Source: Escherichia phage vB_EcoM-172859UKE1. From it: a stretch of 64,000 nt of DNA. The stretch lies in the sequence record MZ234025.1. One strand, given 5' to 3'. A program made the translations under genes and the position numbers. Position 1 is the first letter of the stretch, and every line of letters starts with the position of its first letter. The notes below the pieces were generated by a model. The model saw nothing but the letters and a program-made list of their open reading frames with translations. It searched no databases and had not been told where the DNA came from. Below, one piece after another: positions 43,755 through 63,569 of the stretch.

Positions 43755-43829
43755 GGCCCTGTAGCTCAATGGGAGAGCTGTCAGCTCATAACTGATAGGT
43801 AGCTGGATCGAAACCAGCCAGGGTCACCA
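43755..43829 (+). tRNA. tRNA-Met (anticodon CAT; could be initiator, elongator or lysidine-modified Ile2)
   Basis: Hand-folded cloverleaf: 7-bp acceptor stem, D arm GCTC/GAGC, anticodon loop CTCATAA, T arm GCTGG/CCAGC, encoded CCA; T-loop ATCGAAA is atypical. Confidence 0.75.
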
Positions 43830-43832
43830 ATC

Positions 43833-43909
<77 letters not shown>

Positions 43910-46959: not shown

Positions 46960-47562
46960 ATGCGAAACCAAAATAATGATATTGACTCAATGTTCGAAGA
47001 GTTCCGAGATAAGGTAAATCCACCTACGTCTTTAGTTGATTCATTACGATATGTTGCAACCGGACGTAAATGGTACTGGTCGTCTTCTTATGAGACTACT
47101 GAGAAAACGGCTAGCCATAGCAGAAAATCTTTATTAGCCCCAGGTATTATGATTCATGATATCGGAGCTATTGCTAAACTAGTTGCAGACCATGATATTA
47201 GATTCACTGATTTCGTTGCTCCTACATGGTCTGTTTGTTGTTTAAACACTGAATTGGAATATATCAGCGAACGCTCTGAAGATTATTATGGTTTTAGAGA
47301 TAAGCTTCTGAGGTCTAATATGTTTTATATCGATACAGAAGTTCTAGTCGATAATAAAAAATATTACTTTACGTTAATCATCGATTCTGAAACTATGTAT
47401 GAAGGCAAGCCTTTGCTTAAAAGAGTTGATGCTTTAAGTGCTATTGATGCGCTTTATGAAACTATGGTTGTTAGTCCTAATTTCACTAACAATTTAATCC
47501 TTGAGCAATTTATTATGGAATGTAGAGAATATGTCAAAGCCAACCCTGTACATGCCAATTAA
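46960..47562 (+). CDS. Hypothetical protein (200 aa)
   Basis: ATG 46960 after AAAGGAG SD. Confidence 0.55.
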   Translation: MRNQNNDIDSMFEEFRDKVNPPTSLVDSLRYVATGRKWYWSSSYETTEKTASHSRKSLLAPGIMIHDIGAIAKLVADHDIRFTDFVAPTWSVCCLNTELEYISERSEDYYGFRDKLLRSNMFYIDTEVLVDNKKYYFTLIIDSETMYEGKPLLKRVDALSAIDALYETMVVSPNFTNNLILEQFIMECREYVKANPVHAN

Positions 47563-47926
47563 GCCCTGGGCGTATGAATACAAGCGTAAATTAATCCCAA
47601 ACGAAGTACTATTTGGCCCTATTTTAGCTTTAGCATTTTTAATCTTTATGATTGTAGGAGCTGTTTTAGATTCTAGTGAAGTTATATCGTCTGATGCAGT
47701 GTTTTTACTTATTATAGCCGGGTCGTTTATTGTGCCATTTTTATTAATGCCTATTAACTGGGTGGGATATTGGTACCAAGGCCGTCATCACAGAGCTCGA
47801 GTTCGTGAATGGAAAGTTCAGTGCGCAAAAGCCAAAGCTCAGTATGATGAAGCTGTTAAAAAGTATGAATATGAAGAAGCTATGGAATTCGTTAAGGAAA
47901 TAAGATGCAAAAGCCTCAACTCTTAA
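47531..47926 (+). CDS. Membrane protein (two TM helices, basic C-terminal helix); start uncertain (47531 or 47552)
   Basis: Hydrophobic segments LFGPILALAFLIFMIVGAVL and AVFLLIIAGSFIVPFLLMPI; overlaps upstream ORF. Confidence 0.5.
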   Translation: MSKPTLYMPIKPWAYEYKRKLIPNEVLFGPILALAFLIFMIVGAVLDSSEVISSDAVFLLIIAGSFIVPFLLMPINWVGYWYQGRHHRARVREWKVQCAKAKAQYDEAVKKYEYEEAMEFVKEIRCKSLNS

Positions 47927-48264
47927 CCGTATGGCCTTCTCTTGGTGAGAACATTCTAATTTTTATTATGAGTATTGGCATGGGATTTGCCTTTGGATTA
48001 GTTGGATTTCTTATTGACGGCGTTGTGTTAGGATTTATAGGGAACACTGGTGGATTCACAGACCAATGGCAGGACTTACGATATACTCAAGCCTTTGCAT
48101 CAATCGCATCCTTTTGTACAGTAGTCTATTTTTACTACGATTTTATAAACCATAACAAGAAAAATAAAAAGGTTTACGCTTCTCAAATGATTAGTTATAA
48201 TGAACTCCTAGCTAGACGTGAAAATGAAACAATCGAAAACTTTATTAAGGAATGTAGAAAATGA
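47905..48264 (+). CDS. Membrane protein, member of the C-terminal ENFIKECR family
   Basis: 119 aa; TM segment plus C-terminal ...ETIENFIKECRK, shared with ORFs at 50680 and 51673. Confidence 0.55.
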   Translation: MQKPQLLTVWPSLGENILIFIMSIGMGFAFGLVGFLIDGVVLGFIGNTGGFTDQWQDLRYTQAFASIASFCTVVYFYYDFINHNKKNKKVYASQMISYNELLARRENETIENFIKECRK

Positions 48265-48566
48265 GTAAGATTATTGAAATTAAAGTACCAGAGTTTAATG
48301 ATGCCAAATCCGCTTCAGATGCAATTTATAAACTTCTGAATCAAGCTGAACGTATCGAAGAAGAAGCAACAAAGATCGCAGACCAATATGCCGTATCATT
48401 TTCTGTAGGTGATTATGGTAGCGGTCGTACTTATTATCCTAAGGGTGAAATCGTATCCCAGTGGATGAAAGATGAAATTGAAAATAATGGTGGCGATGTT
48501 AAGCGTGAAGGTAATGGTTACGTTATTACTGAAGGTGCTTGGGTTTCGTCTTCTGCGTTGTGCTAA
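48261..48566 (+). CDS. Hypothetical protein, paralog family member 1 (C-terminal GWVSSS..C)
   Basis: 101 aa ending GAWVSSSALC. Confidence 0.55.
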   Translation: MSKIIEIKVPEFNDAKSASDAIYKLLNQAERIEEEATKIADQYAVSFSVGDYGSGRTYYPKGEIVSQWMKDEIENNGGDVKREGNGYVITEGAWVSSSALC

Positions 48567-48575
48567 GGAATCATT

Positions 48576-48848
48576 ATGTCTAAAGAACAAACCGAACTGG
48601 CTGAAGCTGTAGCAAAAATCTATGCAGCTATTGAGGCTGCCAAAGAAATTGCTGATAAACAAAACACAACATTCGACTTGTATCCAGCTTATGGTATGGG
48701 TGGAACCTATCATTCACCCGGACATCTTAAAGCCGATCTTGAACGTTGTACAAAAAACGGTTATGCTGAATGGGCTGATGTTTATCAATACGACTACAAC
48801 CTGAGCCTTGAAGATGGTGGTTGGGTTGCATCTTCACACACTTGCTAA
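48576..48848 (+). CDS. Hypothetical protein, paralog family member 2
   Basis: 90 aa ending GGWVASSHTC; SD AAGGAA. Confidence 0.55.
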   Translation: MSKEQTELAEAVAKIYAAIEAAKEIADKQNTTFDLYPAYGMGGTYHSPGHLKADLERCTKNGYAEWADVYQYDYNLSLEDGGWVASSHTC

Positions 48849-48857
48849 GGAAACCAT

Positions 48858-49055
48858 ATGTCTCGTGAATTAGATTGTGCTGTACGTACCGCGGTAGCTG
48901 CTCTAGAAAACCTGTTCCAAATTGCAACAGAAGAACGCGAAGAAGTTACATTATGGATTGAAGATAACGCAGGTCTGAATCTCCAGGACGCGATCTCATT
49001 ATCTAATAATAGCATTACTGTTCAAGGCTGGGTATCGTCTAGTTATTCTTGCTAA
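48858..49055 (+). CDS. Hypothetical protein, paralog family member 3
   Basis: 65 aa ending QGWVSSSYSC; SD AAGGAAA. Confidence 0.55.
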   Translation: MSRELDCAVRTAVAALENLFQIATEEREEVTLWIEDNAGLNLQDAISLSNNSITVQGWVSSSYSC

Positions 49056-49059
49056 AACA

Positions 49060-49089
49060 GTTTACAATAAGATAGGACTATGTTATAGT
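49060..49089 (+). promoter_or_regulatory. Early promoter within palindromic cassette
   Basis: GTTTAC at 49060-49065, TGtTATAGT -10; exact 28-bp palindrome copy at 49071-49098. Confidence 0.6.
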
Positions 49090-49117
49090 AGTCCTATCAA
49101 ATTAAATGGAGTCCGCA

Positions 49118-49357
49118 ATGATTTATTACGAAAGTATCGGAACCAAAGTGATTGGTAAAACCATTACTCGTGAAAAGTTTGCAAAGATATTCGATATGCG
49201 TTATAAAAAATCTGAACACAAAGGCATCCGATTCGAAGATGCGCACTGTACAATTTGCCCTTATAATGAAGACATAAATGGTACAATCGTTCCATTGGTA
49301 GAGGCTTCACATGATGACCTCTGGGATGAATATAATATCGCATGTCGTGAAATTTAA
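49118..49357 (+). CDS. Hypothetical protein (79 aa)
   Basis: ATG 49118 after GGAG; the ATG at 49106 lies within the conserved AAATGGAG cassette. Confidence 0.5.
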   Translation: MIYYESIGTKVIGKTITREKFAKIFDMRYKKSEHKGIRFEDAHCTICPYNEDINGTIVPLVEASHDDLWDEYNIACREI

Positions 49358-49385
49358 GTTAATGAATTAATCCGAGGAAAATATT

Positions 49386-50342
49386 ATGATGTTAGTTATT
49401 GGTTCTCGTGCACTTCACTATCATGGTCTTATTGATTCTAGCGCTATCAAAAATAGTGATTGGGACTTTATTGCGGACCAAGGTTCTTGGAATGCATTCA
49501 AAAATCAAATGATGGGTGTATATGTTCACCAAGATAACCCTGATGTCCAAGTTTTCAAATGCTTCCATAATGGACGCGAAACTCATTTTGAAGCATATAT
49601 TGTTCCGGCGATCACTAATGTCCGTGAATTAGTCGGTGAACTCACTCCTGAAGATTTCACGTCTTCTTATGACCTTTTAAAATACGCCAAGAAAAATTTG
49701 ACTAAAGACCGTTTGACCGGGTTTTACTGGGCAACTCCTGAGATATGTCTTGCAATTAAAATGTCTCATCGTTTCAAGAAAAATAATCCATTCTTTTTAA
49801 AGACTATGAACCATATTCAGTATCTTCGCGGTAAAGGTGTTACACTGAACGATGAACTTACTGAAATTATGCTGAAACGCCAGAAAGAAACTTTGAACTA
49901 TGCTCACCCGGTTCTTGACACTTCTAAAAGTGCGTTCTTTAAAGATGACATCTATACATATGACCATGATACTATTCATGAAGCCATTGCACTAACTGAC
50001 CAGCCTGCTTATAAGTTTTATATGAAAGAAGGCTCAGAAGTTATGACATCACGCGAGAAGTTCGAATCATTACCAGAAATGGTTAAATTAGCCGGTGTAT
50101 ATGAAGAAGCTTGTGTATTAGCTCTTGAACGTTCACAGATTCCTAACGACTTTAAAATCCATCCGAGTGATAGTTTTATGATGGCCCTTGAAAAGGTCTG
50201 TACATCAATCACATCAGGATGGTTCCGTGAGTTCGCTTGGGAAAATTATAGCAAAGTAGTAAGTATGTACCAAAGCTTAGGACATGACGATTACGTCAAG
50301 CGTTTCAAACAAAACTTTCATATGGTAAAACCTTTCAAATAA
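49386..50342 (+). CDS. Hypothetical protein (318 aa) with a weak nucleotidyltransferase-like GS...DxD N-terminal motif
   Basis: IGSRALHYHGL...NSDWDF near N-terminus; longest ORF of the accessory region. Confidence 0.6.
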   Translation: MMLVIGSRALHYHGLIDSSAIKNSDWDFIADQGSWNAFKNQMMGVYVHQDNPDVQVFKCFHNGRETHFEAYIVPAITNVRELVGELTPEDFTSSYDLLKYAKKNLTKDRLTGFYWATPEICLAIKMSHRFKKNNPFFLKTMNHIQYLRGKGVTLNDELTEIMLKRQKETLNYAHPVLDTSKSAFFKDDIYTYDHDTIHEAIALTDQPAYKFYMKEGSEVMTSREKFESLPEMVKLAGVYEEACVLALERSQIPNDFKIHPSDSFMMALEKVCTSITSGWFREFAWENYSKVVSMYQSLGHDDYVKRFKQNFHMVKPFK

Positions 50343-50354
50343 TTTCACAAAACA

Positions 50355-50384
50355 GTTTACAAGGTCTGTAGTTGTTGATACTAT
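50355..50384 (+). promoter_or_regulatory. Early promoter with inverted repeat
   Basis: GTTTAC at 50355-50360, 18-nt spacer, TACTAT at 50379-50384; arms AGGTCTGTAG/CTATAGACCT. Confidence 0.6.
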
Positions 50385-50422
50385 AGACCTATCAAAACAA
50401 ATGAGTGAATGGAGATATAAAA

Positions 50423-50623
50423 ATGACTACTTTGAATAAACGTTTCGGTAAAGCTAAACCTGGTTGTGCAGCAGAACGTCGTTATGTTTTCGCTCAGTTA
50501 GAAGATGTAGAGTATCAGATTAATCAAGTTCACATTACTGGTATCGAGCCTATGTGTGGCCTTGAAGCTCTTCGTGAAGTTCGTGATGGGTATCGTCGTG
50601 ACATCGAAGAAATGTCAAAATAA
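50423..50623 (+). CDS. Hypothetical small protein (66 aa)
   Basis: ATG 50423 after GGAG within the conserved RBS cassette. Confidence 0.5.
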   Translation: MTTLNKRFGKAKPGCAAERRYVFAQLEDVEYQINQVHITGIEPMCGLEALREVRDGYRRDIEEMSK

Positions 50624-50624
50624 G

Positions 50625-50653
50625 TGTACAAACTGATAGGGCTATGTTATAGT
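50625..50653 (+). promoter_or_regulatory. Early promoter within palindromic cassette
   Basis: GTGTAC -35, TATAGT -10; 28-bp palindrome with one mismatch at 50635-50662. Confidence 0.55.
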
Positions 50654-50679
50654 AGTCCTATCAACTTGAGGAGAATATT

Positions 50680-50985
50680 ATGAAATTAACAGAAACCAAC
50701 CGAATCGGTCTTTTTACAATATTTGCATCGCTTTTTTACGCAGCTCTTTCTGTTGCAGTATTACAAAAGGCTTACGATATGGATGGTGTTCCTGGTTGTA
50801 TATTTTTATCACCGTTTTTATTATTCGTCGGAGCTTTGATATTATATGCCACGTCCGGTTTAGACCATAATGTCTGGGTCAATTATAAACGTAAATTGTC
50901 CGAAGAAGAACACGCAGAAGCTCGTAAAAAAGCTATTGAATCTACCAATCTAGAAAATTTCATTAAAGAATGTCGAGGAAAATAA
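50680..50985 (+). CDS. Membrane protein, ENFIKECR family
   Basis: 101 aa; two hydrophobic segments; C-terminus ...STNLENFIKECRGK. Confidence 0.55.
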   Translation: MKLTETNRIGLFTIFASLFYAALSVAVLQKAYDMDGVPGCIFLSPFLLFVGALILYATSGLDHNVWVNYKRKLSEEEHAEARKKAIESTNLENFIKECRGK

Positions 50986-50986
50986 T

Positions 50987-51673
50987 ATGAATAGTTCTAA
51001 AGTGTTTAATAGTCAAGCTCGTGCAGTAGGTGGTTTTGCCGGCGGTATTTCTAATGATAAAATCAAGAACGAGCCTATGTTCTTCAACTGTAGTTTAGAA
51101 TTTGCTTATAATAACGGCGGTCCTATTACTCGCTCTTTCATTATGAACTTGCCGGATGATTGGAACACCGACCAGGTTGTATTTGATTCACGAGTCCACA
51201 TGCTGATGCCTGGTTGGTATCCTGCAATCCCAGGCTATCACCATGATGACGTACCACGCCCAGATATTCCAGTTGGTCAACACTTTATTACTGCAGGACA
51301 ACCTGACTATGACAACCCTCGTTACCATTCTGAACATATTCTTGGTCTTGTTAACGCTGATGTGTGTCCTACTCATTTTGCAACAGGAACTGCGGAGTTC
51401 AGTCAGATTCCTTATGGCGAACTTATCTATCGCCAGTGGCACAAAGAAGTCCTCGAAAAAATTGAAAAAGGTGAACTAGAGAAATGGGAAGCTCCAGATC
51501 GTACTCTTCTTCAGTTTGATTGGCAAACATGGCACACTGGTTCTCGTGCAATTAGTAACGGATGGCGTTGGTTCGGACGTGTATCTCGTAATACAGACCG
51601 AGTTAAAAAGATTACCAATGAAATTCGTGTCAATGCTCAAGTTTATCTGGAATTCCCTATGGAAGGCTGGTAA
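50987..51673 (+). CDS. Hypothetical protein (228 aa)
   Basis: ORF after GGAAAA SD, Trp/His-rich. Confidence 0.55.
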   Translation: MNSSKVFNSQARAVGGFAGGISNDKIKNEPMFFNCSLEFAYNNGGPITRSFIMNLPDDWNTDQVVFDSRVHMLMPGWYPAIPGYHHDDVPRPDIPVGQHFITAGQPDYDNPRYHSEHILGLVNADVCPTHFATGTAEFSQIPYGELIYRQWHKEVLEKIEKGELEKWEAPDRTLLQFDWQTWHTGSRAISNGWRWFGRVSRNTDRVKKITNEIRVNAQVYLEFPMEGW

Positions 51674-52164
51674 TGATACATAAAATTCACTGGGCAAACA
51701 TGGACGATGACGACGAAGGTACTTCATATTATTCTATAGATTGGACAGGATGTCCATCCTACTTAGTGAAACGTCATTGTCAAGCATTTAAAATCGACCA
51801 GCCAGCAGGTATTATTGTGAACAGATACATTAACGGATATCAACCTATCGATGAAGTAATACGAACAACTCAAGCTGAGCTTGAAAAGTTTTTCAATAAG
51901 TGCCAATGGATAACAGGATGGATTATATTTGTACCGTCAGTGTGGTTTTTTAGTACTAAGGTGAGTTCTTTCGGTTTTGTTGATATTATTGCTATCTTAT
52001 TAGCATCTAGTATCATAAGTGTTGTTGGTGGCATCATTGGCGGCGGTACCGCCGCCATCATTATTAATCTTATTAAAAGTAGTTTACAAGAACATAAAGA
52101 CAAGATAAAAGCCAAGAATAATGAAGTTGAACGTTTTATTACCGAATGCAGGAATTTGAGATGA
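51673..52164 (+). CDS. Membrane protein, ENFIKECR family
   Basis: 163 aa; C-terminal TM region and ...NNEVERFITECRNLR. Confidence 0.55.
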   Translation: MIHKIHWANMDDDDEGTSYYSIDWTGCPSYLVKRHCQAFKIDQPAGIIVNRYINGYQPIDEVIRTTQAELEKFFNKCQWITGWIIFVPSVWFFSTKVSSFGFVDIIAILLASSIISVVGGIIGGGTAAIIINLIKSSLQEHKDKIKAKNNEVERFITECRNLR

Positions 52165-52397
52165 GTATAGCAATTTACATTAAATCAGAATCATGTGATA
52201 GTTATCTGTACACATATGATAAAGATGTGTCAGAAGAAAAAATCAAAGACGATCTTAATATGGACCTTGATTTGTTCCGTCCTATTGCAGATTACAAACT
52301 TGCGGTCTCTAATAGTGAAAGTCCATCTAAAGAAACGCGCATTGAAGAATTTATGTCAGAATTAATGGCCAAATCATGGGACCGAGATGATGAGTAA
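52161..52397 (+). CDS. Hypothetical acidic protein (78 aa)
   Basis: ATGA overlap with upstream stop. Confidence 0.45.
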   Translation: MSIAIYIKSESCDSYLYTYDKDVSEEKIKDDLNMDLDLFRPIADYKLAVSNSESPSKETRIEEFMSELMAKSWDRDDE

Positions 52398-62109: not shown

Positions 62110-62583
62110 ATGATTATCAATGAAAACTCTTGGCACTTTAAAATTTATGCCACGTTCAATAGTACGTGGAATCGTCCGAAAACATTATGTGCTTATTTTT
62201 GGAAAACGTTTATTCCGGTATTGGCTGTTTCAATTGTTGGATTTGCAACTTTAGCAGGTGCCGCAATCATTGGCCAAGAAATTTTAATTAAATTCTTTGT
62301 CTTTAGTAGTTTATGGACATTAGTTCCTGCTTCAATTGGTATAGGCATTTTAACAATATCAGTAATGGTTCTTATTGCTGTCGGGGCGGTAATTGGTCCG
62401 TCTTGGTTGTTAGACAAATATAACGACAGAAAATATTATAAAGAAATTGAGCTCATTGCACAAAACCAAGAACGAATTAAAAATGGACTTGAGCCTATTG
62501 AACGTAAGAAATCATTAATAGGTGAATACCTTAAAGCTCGTAAAGAAAAAGTCTGTCCTACTCTTGAATATAAGGCTAAATGA
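62110..62583 (+). CDS. Membrane protein (157 aa, several TM helices)
   Basis: Hydrophobic segments FIPVLAVSIVGFATLAGAAIIG and GIGILTISVMVLIAVGAVIG. Confidence 0.55.
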   Translation: MIINENSWHFKIYATFNSTWNRPKTLCAYFWKTFIPVLAVSIVGFATLAGAAIIGQEILIKFFVFSSLWTLVPASIGIGILTISVMVLIAVGAVIGPSWLLDKYNDRKYYKEIELIAQNQERIKNGLEPIERKKSLIGEYLKARKEKVCPTLEYKAK

Positions 62584-63569
62584 TGAAAACAATTATGAAA
62601 GGCTACTTTGGTAGCCACCTTTATGGAACGTCTACTCCTGAATCTGACGTCGATTTTAAAGAAATTTATGTCCCTCATGCTCGTGATATCTTGACCGGTA
62701 ACGTTAAAGAACACATGAGCAAGAACACTAACAACACTGCTTCTAAGAACACAAAAGACGACGTGGACCATGAGTTGTATAGTCTCAAATATTTCTTTAA
62801 ACTAGCTGCAGATGGTGAAACCGTCGCATTAGATATGCTTCACACTCCACAAAGTCTAGTAGTTAAATCTGATTTGCCTGATGTATGGAAGTATATTCAA
62901 GATAACAGGTCTCGTTTCTATACCACTAACATGAAATCTTATTTAGGGTATGTCCGTAAGCAAGCTTCTAAATATGGTGTCAAGGGTTCTCGACTGGCTG
63001 TTCTTCGTCAAGCCCTTAAACGTTCTAATGAATGGGGACAATACTTTGATAATGGTGCGGTAATTCGTTTATCACATATGAAGAATGTTCTGCCTGTAGG
63101 TGAATTTGCTTCATGGGTTGAAACCGAAAACGAGAAAACAGGTAAGCAAACATTCTATAATCTATTAGACCGTAAATTCCAAGACACGTTAACCAATAAA
63201 GAGTTCAATGCCATCCTGGTTAAACTGGAAGAGAACTATGGTGAACGTGCTCGTAAGGCGGAAGCCAACGAAGGTATTGACTGGAAAGCATTGAGTCATG
63301 CATGTCGTGGTGGACTTCAATTATTGGAAATTTACAAAACCGGTGACCTGGTTTACCCGCTTCAGGATGCTCCATTTATTCTTGATGTTAAGCTTGGTAA
63401 ACATACGTTTAAAACTGTACAAGAATTCCTAGAAGATATCGTTGACCAAGTTGAACAAGCATCAGAACAAGCCGCTAAGAACGGTATGCAACAAAAAGTA
63501 GATATGAGTTTCTGGGATGATTTCCTTGAGCAAGTCTATCTCGAAAATCATAATTCTTACTATAAATAA
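62580..63569 (+). CDS. Putative nucleotidyltransferase (pol-beta-like fold), 329 aa
   Basis: Canonical minimal NTase motif GS-x9-DxD near the N-terminus: YFGSHLYGTSTPESDVDF. Confidence 0.6.
   Translation: MMKTIMKGYFGSHLYGTSTPESDVDFKEIYVPHARDILTGNVKEHMSKNTNNTASKNTKDDVDHELYSLKYFFKLAADGETVALDMLHTPQSLVVKSDLPDVWKYIQDNRSRFYTTNMKSYLGYVRKQASKYGVKGSRLAVLRQALKRSNEWGQYFDNGAVIRLSHMKNVLPVGEFASWVETENEKTGKQTFYNLLDRKFQDTLTNKEFNAILVKLEENYGERARKAEANEGIDWKALSHACRGGLQLLEIYKTGDLVYPLQDAPFILDVKLGKHTFKTVQEFLEDIVDQVEQASEQAAKNGMQQKVDMSFWDDFLEQVYLENHNSYYK

Follow-up and report, generated by a model that had tools for sequence, protein, structure and literature searches.

In canonical NTases of the Pol-beta superfamily, 9-13 residues separate the hG[GS] motif from DhD (Dy 2014, PMC3985639), and DUF1814/AbiEii proteins have an unusual spacing of 15 (PMC3985639). 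MenT/AbiEii enzymes (DUF1814, PF08843) are found in bacterial TA loci, where their partners are AbiEi/MenA regulators or kinases; the catalytic residues of MenT1 are D41/D43, K137 and D152 (PMC10435456). ANT(2'')-Ia and LnuA are antibiotic-resistance proteins of 160-180 aa. MntA, of the HEPN/MNT type VII TA system, is a Pol-beta NTase whose (oligo)AMPylation target is a conserved residue close to the C-terminal end of an adjacently encoded protein (PMC7641770, PMC11586414). It is a minimal enzyme of about 100-140 aa and acts on a Tyr of its partner, a HEPN RNase with an Rx4-6H motif. The RlaP enzymes work on damaged RNA, extending its 3' ends by one or two NMPs (10.64898/2025.12.29.696909). 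Finally, the described phage NAD+ counter-defences include NARP1 with its phosphatase and RyDEP extensions, and also NARP3.

We analysed a stretch of 64,000 nucleotides from Escherichia phage vB_EcoM-172859UKE1 (MZ234025.1), called the window below, in which an earlier note had picked out a 318-aa ORF with a loose NTase-like motif (the target; Table 1). Re-reading the ORF gave exactly the length and limits described before, on the + strand; the protein starts with MMLVIGSRALHYHGLIDSSAIKNSDWDFIADQ, and a GAGGAAA ribosome-binding site lies 7 nt 5' of the ATG. The region is 99.8% identical over 2.5 kb to Shigella phage SSE1 (Mosigvirus, T4-like), and in SSE1 and its relatives the gene is annotated as 'hypothetical protein'. 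In Pfam, the protein matched DUF7277 (aa 2-101, 97.2 bits) and DUF7275 (aa 120-305, 263.7 bits; gathering cut-off 27 for both), and over its full length it matched phrog_2141 (3e-149), none of the three having an assigned function. Sequence and profile searches of the PDB gave no match, NCBIfam and PADLOC gave nothing meaningful, and a literature search found no papers on its DUF, PHROG or Pfam identifiers. The family is strongly conserved and wholly uncharacterised. The superfamily of the enzyme is already known.

Table 1. Coordinates of the features discussed in the text (positions in the window unless another phage or locus is named).
Feature	Position	Strand	Details
Target gene	49386..50342	+	318 aa; DUF7277+DUF7275 protein, predicted Pol-beta-fold NTase, virus-only family
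N-terminal NTase core, aa 1-105	49386..49700	+	from model secondary structure and conservation
C-terminal helical module, aa 108-318	49707..50339	+	carries the invariant residues listed in the text
Partner protein 1	48261..48566	+	101 aa, pI 4.6, ends ...EGAWVSSSALC; phrog_899
Partner protein 2	48576..48848	+	90 aa, pI 4.7, ends ...DGGWVASSHTC; YGMGGxY motif; phrog_899
Partner protein 3	48858..49055	+	65 aa, pI 4.05, ends ...VQGWVSSSYSC; phrog_4882
Intervening 83-aa ORF	49106..49357	+	phrog_3723; tail motif absent
Promoter-like site	48173..48201	+	TTTACG, 17 nt, TATAAT; consensus match only
T4-early-type promoter-like site	49061..49089	+	TTTACA, 17 nt, TG-n-TATAGT; consensus match only
Further T4-early-type promoter-like sites	50356-50384, 50625-50653, 52174-52202
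RlaP NTase	62580-63569		329 aa; PF10127 (1e-12), phrog_388
Small predicted membrane proteins	47905-48264, 50680-50985, 51673-52164		common tail E-x-F-I-x-E-C-R (+1-3 aa)
Fourth ORF beside these	47501-47926		ends ...EFVKEIRCKSLNS
228-aa ORF	50987-51673		phrog_1843, no Pfam; several His-Asp-rich stretches
228-aa ORF, Aeromonas phage (L038)	8028-8714		similarly placed downstream of the target gene
tRNA-Met(CAT) and tRNA-Arg(TCT)	43755-43909		phage tRNA genes, adjoining
NARP1-type cassette, L036	3527-7326		beside the target gene
NARP1-type cassette, L124	9650-13881		beside the target gene
NARP1-type cassette, L043 (Vibrio phage K460)	2210-6603		beside the target gene

The GS...DWD arrangement had been judged to be more widely spaced than in canonical NTases, and this proved right, since 17 residues lie between G6-S7 and D25-W-D27. 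Across the family the spacing has a mode of 15, the same value as in DUF1814/AbiEii, and is mostly 14-19. We aligned 142 diverse members, all 35-56% identical to the query. G6 and D27 were found in 142/142, D25 in 140/142 and S7 in 138/142, and position 69 was E or D in 140/142. As these positions are kept in homologues of such low identity, the motif is not a chance match, and the family has the full three-carboxylate Pol-beta signature. An AlphaFold2 model was then built from 38 sequences. It was confident (pLDDT 91.7, pTM 0.86) and had the Pol-beta alpha/beta NTase fold: in the model, V4-I5-G6-S7 lies at the strand-helix turn after beta1 and opens the G6-S7 helix, D25-W-D27-F lies on beta2, and beta3-beta5 follow, with E69 as the third carboxylate on beta5, before about twelve helices. 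Structural matches scored 10.1 for MenT1 (146 residues aligned, 8% identity), 8.7 for TglT/MenT3, 8.5 for ANT(2''), 7.8 for MenT4, 7.7 for a fungal NTase-like antigen (5uvd), 7.6 for TM1012 (2ewr), 7.4 for a putative NTase of H. pylori (4ok0) and 7.2 for LnuA. These matches to known NTases support the NTase interpretation. In the model, the fold of the catalytic core comes closest to that of the group formed by MenT/AbiEii and ANT(2'')/Lnu. The 318-aa protein is a genuine NTase, and probably an active one.

The long hG[GS]x15DhD spacing of MenT/AbiEii is shared by the target (x = 17; family mode 15), but DUF1814 had no match in the target at E<=1, and 1/142 members matched it, at E=0.021. The Arg of motif II is absent (N-S-D-W-D-F in the target). 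Instead of motif III, KLxAaxxR, the target has the helix L-A-I-K125-M-S-H-R129, in which K to R is 4 residues and not 7, and instead of motif IV, +DxxD, it has K139-T-M-x-[D/H]143. The MenT1 residues D41/D43, K137 and D152 have spacings that resemble those of D25/D27, K125 and position 143 of the target, a correspondence of spacing only; at position 143 the target has His, where 91% of the family have Asp. The C-terminal module is about 150 aa larger than that of MenT/AbiEii and carries an HDxxH/EE/ER cluster. ANT(2'')-Ia and LnuA have no sequence relationship to the target, for which we found no evidence of an antibiotic substrate of their type. Class II CCA-adding enzymes and GlnD, which combine NTase and HD domains, are like the target in that an N-terminal NTase is followed by a helical region with conserved His/Asp.

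A second NTase is encoded in the window, and the earlier note had proposed that it and the target are distant paralogues. This 329-aa RlaP protein (Table 1; the 62580 protein) has a motif spacing of 10 (G11-S12...D23-V-D25). A search for its homologues gave only near-identical proteins (at least 98%), and a diverse RlaP set from viral contigs was used instead. When the 38-sequence target profile was compared with the 15-sequence RlaP profile by hhalign, the probability was 0.2%, so that no profile similarity was seen, and BLASTP between the two proteins gave no match. The target has no PF10127 match in Pfam, and no RlaP proteins were among its significant structural matches in BFVD. An origin by duplication within the phage would account for the N-terminal hGS...DxD of both proteins, their similar lengths and their common membership of the Pol-beta NTase superfamily. 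It is refuted at the profile level, and the Pfam and PHROG families, the motif spacing (17 against 10), the C-terminal domains, which are unrelated, and the gene neighbours all differ, leaving this reading barely credible. The two proteins have the phage in common, and their common ground is the superfamily only. Altogether, the earlier inference of an NTase stands and the paralogy does not, which corrects the idea of two paralogous NTases in one phage. The RlaP gene carries a 'thioredoxin' label in many GenBank/UniProt phage records; as PF10127 is the only significant Pfam match of its product, this is apparently a propagated mis-annotation.

Next to the fold, we looked at the distribution of the family. 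A word-indexed search with the target returned 2,117 homologues, and an exhaustive profile search returned 1,607 clusters at 50% identity; the 150 of these that were listed are mostly about 300 aa long with the same architecture. By tblastn, the family was present in 733/50,697 phage records: T4-like phages of enterobacteria, Aeromonas, Acinetobacter and Vibrio, roughly 150-kb phages of E. coli and Klebsiella, Pseudomonas Otagovirus, and phages of Stenotrophomonas, Streptomyces and Gordonia. BFVD adds the giant viruses Sylvanvirus and Satyrvirus. Their DUF7275 proteins (A0A3G5AJ90, 508 aa, and A0A3G5AE53, 571 aa, respectively) have about 200-250 extra residues. A scan of 185,579 species genomes gave five family loci only, all on MAG contigs, and the one inspected (L035) has a DNA ligase and a primase-helicase nearby and looks phage-derived. 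No bacterial or archaeal TA operon with AbiEi/MenA was found for the family in these genomes, and PADLOC was empty. The family is restricted to viruses, which argues against a bacterial TA role, and the reading of the target as a bacterial TA toxin was ruled out on this ground.

Short forms of 248-261 aa were detected in Streptomyces phage Wakanda (gp195, L041), Gordonia phage JonJames (gp15, L042) and two Vibrio phages (L043 and L046). They retain GS...DxD and the C-terminal core and skip beta3-beta5, hence the strand of the third carboxylate is absent. The residues kept even in these proteins define a universal core, made up of G6, S7, D25, D27, K125, S127, H128, K139, D143, H194, D195, H198, E240, E241, E248, R249, K270, T273 and S274. 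Invariant only in the enzymes that have a partner gene, described below, are the beta3-beta5 subdomain and R129, T140, R165, Y172, P175, K181, C272, S277, G278 and R281. Since the short forms keep the universal core with no partner nearby, the core chemistry can do without the partner. As they miss the third carboxylate, beta3-beta5 and the partner, their activity may be a different or a more basic one.

The majority of the strictly invariant residues sit outside the canonical NTase core, in the C-terminal module, where K125, H128, K139, H194-D195-x-x-H198, E240-E241, E248-R249 and S277-G278-x-x-R281 are invariant. This C-terminal stretch of 210 aa has no solved structural counterpart, and the module is novel. 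H194-D195-x-x-H198 resembles HD/PDE motifs; HD-domain and HEPN readings of the module were considered and had no fold or profile support. We also considered that the target could be an inactive NTase-fold protein serving as a binding scaffold or chaperone for small proteins. A C-terminal module conserved more than the NTase core and short forms lacking the third-carboxylate strand would fit with this. However, G6, D25 and D27 show little or no variation in any form, even the short ones, and 140/142 full-length members have an acidic residue at position 69, a pattern typical of active enzymes. We therefore hold a scaffold to be highly improbable.

To define the surroundings of the target gene, we took 93 loci, each with up to 10 kb of flanking sequence, and merged them into 29 lineages by single-linkage clustering of the target proteins at 60% identity. 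Many of these are T4-like phages of common ancestry and hence only partly independent. The commonest neighbours of all are small genes, mostly upstream of the target gene, for acidic proteins that have nothing in common but an N-terminal helix, a YGxGGxY motif and the extreme C-terminal tail, W(-8)-x-[SAP]-S(-5)-x-x-x-Cys(-1)-stop. The proteins are 41-159 aa long (median 90) with a median pI of 4.45, and the W, S and C of the tail are their sole invariant residues. A strict scan with the tail pattern detected such ORFs in 23/29 lineages, 170 on the strand of the target and 4 on the other strand (1.7 Mb), nearly all of them 0-2.5 kb upstream of the target gene in 1-4 tandem copies. In two further lineages the tail is shortened (NWDSSTC, NWDGSSC) and the small gene directly abuts the target gene. 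Thus, counting the 23 strict and 2 variant tails, a partner stands beside the NTase gene in 25/25 full-length lineages and in 0/4 short-form lineages. In the window, the three partner genes of Table 1 are the only tail-motif ORFs, and in the complete genome of Pseudomonas phage M5.1 (98.5 kb) the only ones are gp153, gp157 and gp159, with the NTase, gp161, downstream. The search was also run in reverse. Five of five homologues of the small proteins, found independently by profile, lay 0-610 bp from a DUF7277+DUF7275 gene, one of them downstream of the NTase gene with overlapping stop and start. L130 and Stenotrophomonas phage Ps15 have the partner downstream instead, so the pairing survives rearrangement. 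The small proteins belong to no Pfam family, their PHROGs have no assigned function, and we found no literature on them. These results indicate that the small acidic proteins are a near-obligate, previously unreported partner family of the NTase.

The pairing with small proteins that share a tail points to an undescribed two-part phage system. Our preferred reading, to which we give an even chance, is that an early-expressed, metal-dependent NTase and small acidic tail-tagged proteins form a conserved phage module. In such a module, NTP-Mg would be held by G6-S7, D25, D27, E69, K125 and K139, and the C-terminal tail of the partner would dock in the conserved C-terminal module through basic residues found only in the partner-associated enzymes, R129, R165, K181 and R281. 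The extra basic residues of these enzymes, as read from the alignment, may fit the binding of an acidic partner or of a C-terminal carboxylate. The NMP would then go to a hydroxyl group, with the invariant Ser of the partner tail as the likeliest acceptor, and a family of small paralogous effectors would thereby be modified or armed. What the analysis shows is the ORF, the conserved motif, the NTase fold, the restriction to viruses and the pairing of the genes in both directions; that the enzyme is active, that it touches the partner and which group accepts the NMP are inferred, the choice of Ser being a guess from its invariant hydroxyl. The module is supported by correlated loss, as the four short-form lineages lack the partner and beta3-beta5 together with R129, R165, K181, S277, G278 and R281. 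MntA, which nucleotidylates its co-encoded HepT, is the precedent and the mechanistic model (PMC7641770, PMC11586414). Compared with MntA, the target is much longer, no HEPN signal was found at its locus, its neighbours have no Pfam family and the partner invariants are only W, S and C. If the enzyme modifies its partners, protein nucleotidylation would join the repertoire of phage early functions. A bolder proposal, which we make tentatively and ourselves find doubtful, is a virus-specific protein tagging in which a MenT-like NTase would recognise the W...S...Cys-COOH tail of the arrayed, diversified small proteins and nucleotidylate Ser(-5), the terminal Cys or the carboxylate, giving NMP-armed effectors or decoys. 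If true, NMP-armed proteins would be used in host takeover or counter-defence, by an undescribed post-translational mechanism that would be conserved across a diversity on the scale of actinophages and up to giant eukaryotic viruses.

Against the preferred reading, none of the closest structural relatives is protein-directed: MenT modifies tRNA 3' ends, and the substrates of ANT and Lnu are small molecules. The target could be a MenT-like NTase of RNA or tRNA 3' ends that shuts off host translation or repairs RNA ends. The small proteins would be inhibitors or regulators and not substrates, their tail plugging the active site as the antitoxin MenA1 blocks MenT1. We consider this reading unlikely. 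The sequence-level membership of DUF1814 is absent, the median pI of the family is 6.2 and not basic, the family is virus-restricted with no bacterial TA module, and tandem, diversified partners that share only a tail would be unusual for antitoxins. Moreover, M5.1 has its tRNA cluster and RNA-repair genes at a distance of 55-70 kb, and the phage studied here already has an RNA-end NTase, RlaP. The two-part module, on our preferred reading, would give a concrete and cheaply testable two-gene system in place of a 'hypothetical protein', for a family of about 1,600 clusters found in phages and giant viruses.

We then looked at the other genes within 5 kb of the target. A Nampt-like gene was the commonest annotated neighbour (8/29 lineages), always on the strand of the target; tRNA genes were present in 9/29 lineages, a PRS-like gene of NARP1 type in 4/29 and a DprA/SLOG-like gene in 5/29. 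NARP1-type cassettes (PRS-like Adps, with or without a phosphatase, and Nampt-like Namat) stand directly beside the target gene in several unrelated phages (Table 1), and L036 has direct adjacency in the order TARGET-PRS-like-Nampt. The target could accordingly be a small-molecule NTase of the NAD+/ADP-ribose counter-defence toolkit, which might adenylylate NMN or process an ADPR-derived defence product to feed NARP1, the small proteins being unrelated neighbours. The constant strand of the Nampt-like gene, the adjacency in L036 and the closeness to the Adps-phosphatase-Namat cassette of Vibrio phage K460 favour this reading. So do the accessory enzymes known in or beside NARP1 operons, Adpp (10.64898/2026.01.28.702374) and RyDEP (10.64898/2026.05.28.727677), the closeness in fold of the small-molecule NTases ANT(2'') and LnuA, and a conserved polar pocket with a neutral pI. 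It is weakened by the absence of a Nampt or PRS-like gene from the window and of a Nampt gene within 5 kb in 21/29 lineages, by the distance of about 70 kb to the NARP1-like genes of M5.1, and by the NARP literature, where an NTase of this type is not mentioned. It would also leave the near-universal partner unexplained, and it seems to us improbable. Whether it acted on tRNA or on NAD-derived metabolites, the enzyme would be a new player in intensely studied arms races. An obligatory linkage to NARP1, tRNA or RNA-repair genes was rejected, such genes being near the target in 8-9/29 lineages and not linked to it in the window or in M5.1, where 55-70 kb separate the NTase gene from the NARP1-like, RNA-ligase and tRNA genes. 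The NARP and tRNA genes seem simply to share accessory regions with the target gene, and their association would at most reflect a loose functional theme. The YspA/SLOG/DprA-like neighbour was likewise dropped as a part of the module because of its low count.

In the window, one promoter-like site precedes the three partner genes and another precedes the 83-aa ORF and the target (Table 1). A consensus scan found no + strand terminator-like site from the first of these to the end of the target gene. When the 29 lineages were clustered, the 83-aa ORF did not come up as a recurrent neighbour; it is probably a passenger of this lineage, carried along in the same transcription unit. Further sites of the T4-early type lie downstream; from 49061 to 52202 they have TTTACA/TGTACA, a 17-nt spacing and a TG-extended -10, each before successive small genes. 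This series suggests a densely promoted early accessory region.

Other genes of the region were also noted. The small predicted membrane proteins with the E-x-F-I-x-E-C-R (FIxECR) tail are confined to the Mosigvirus-like lineage (1/29) and were rejected as a part of the module; a fourth ORF lies beside them (Table 1). The adjoining phage tRNA genes are about 5.5 kb upstream of the target. The 228-aa ORF of the window has a counterpart in Aeromonas phages, the likeness being one of size and position.
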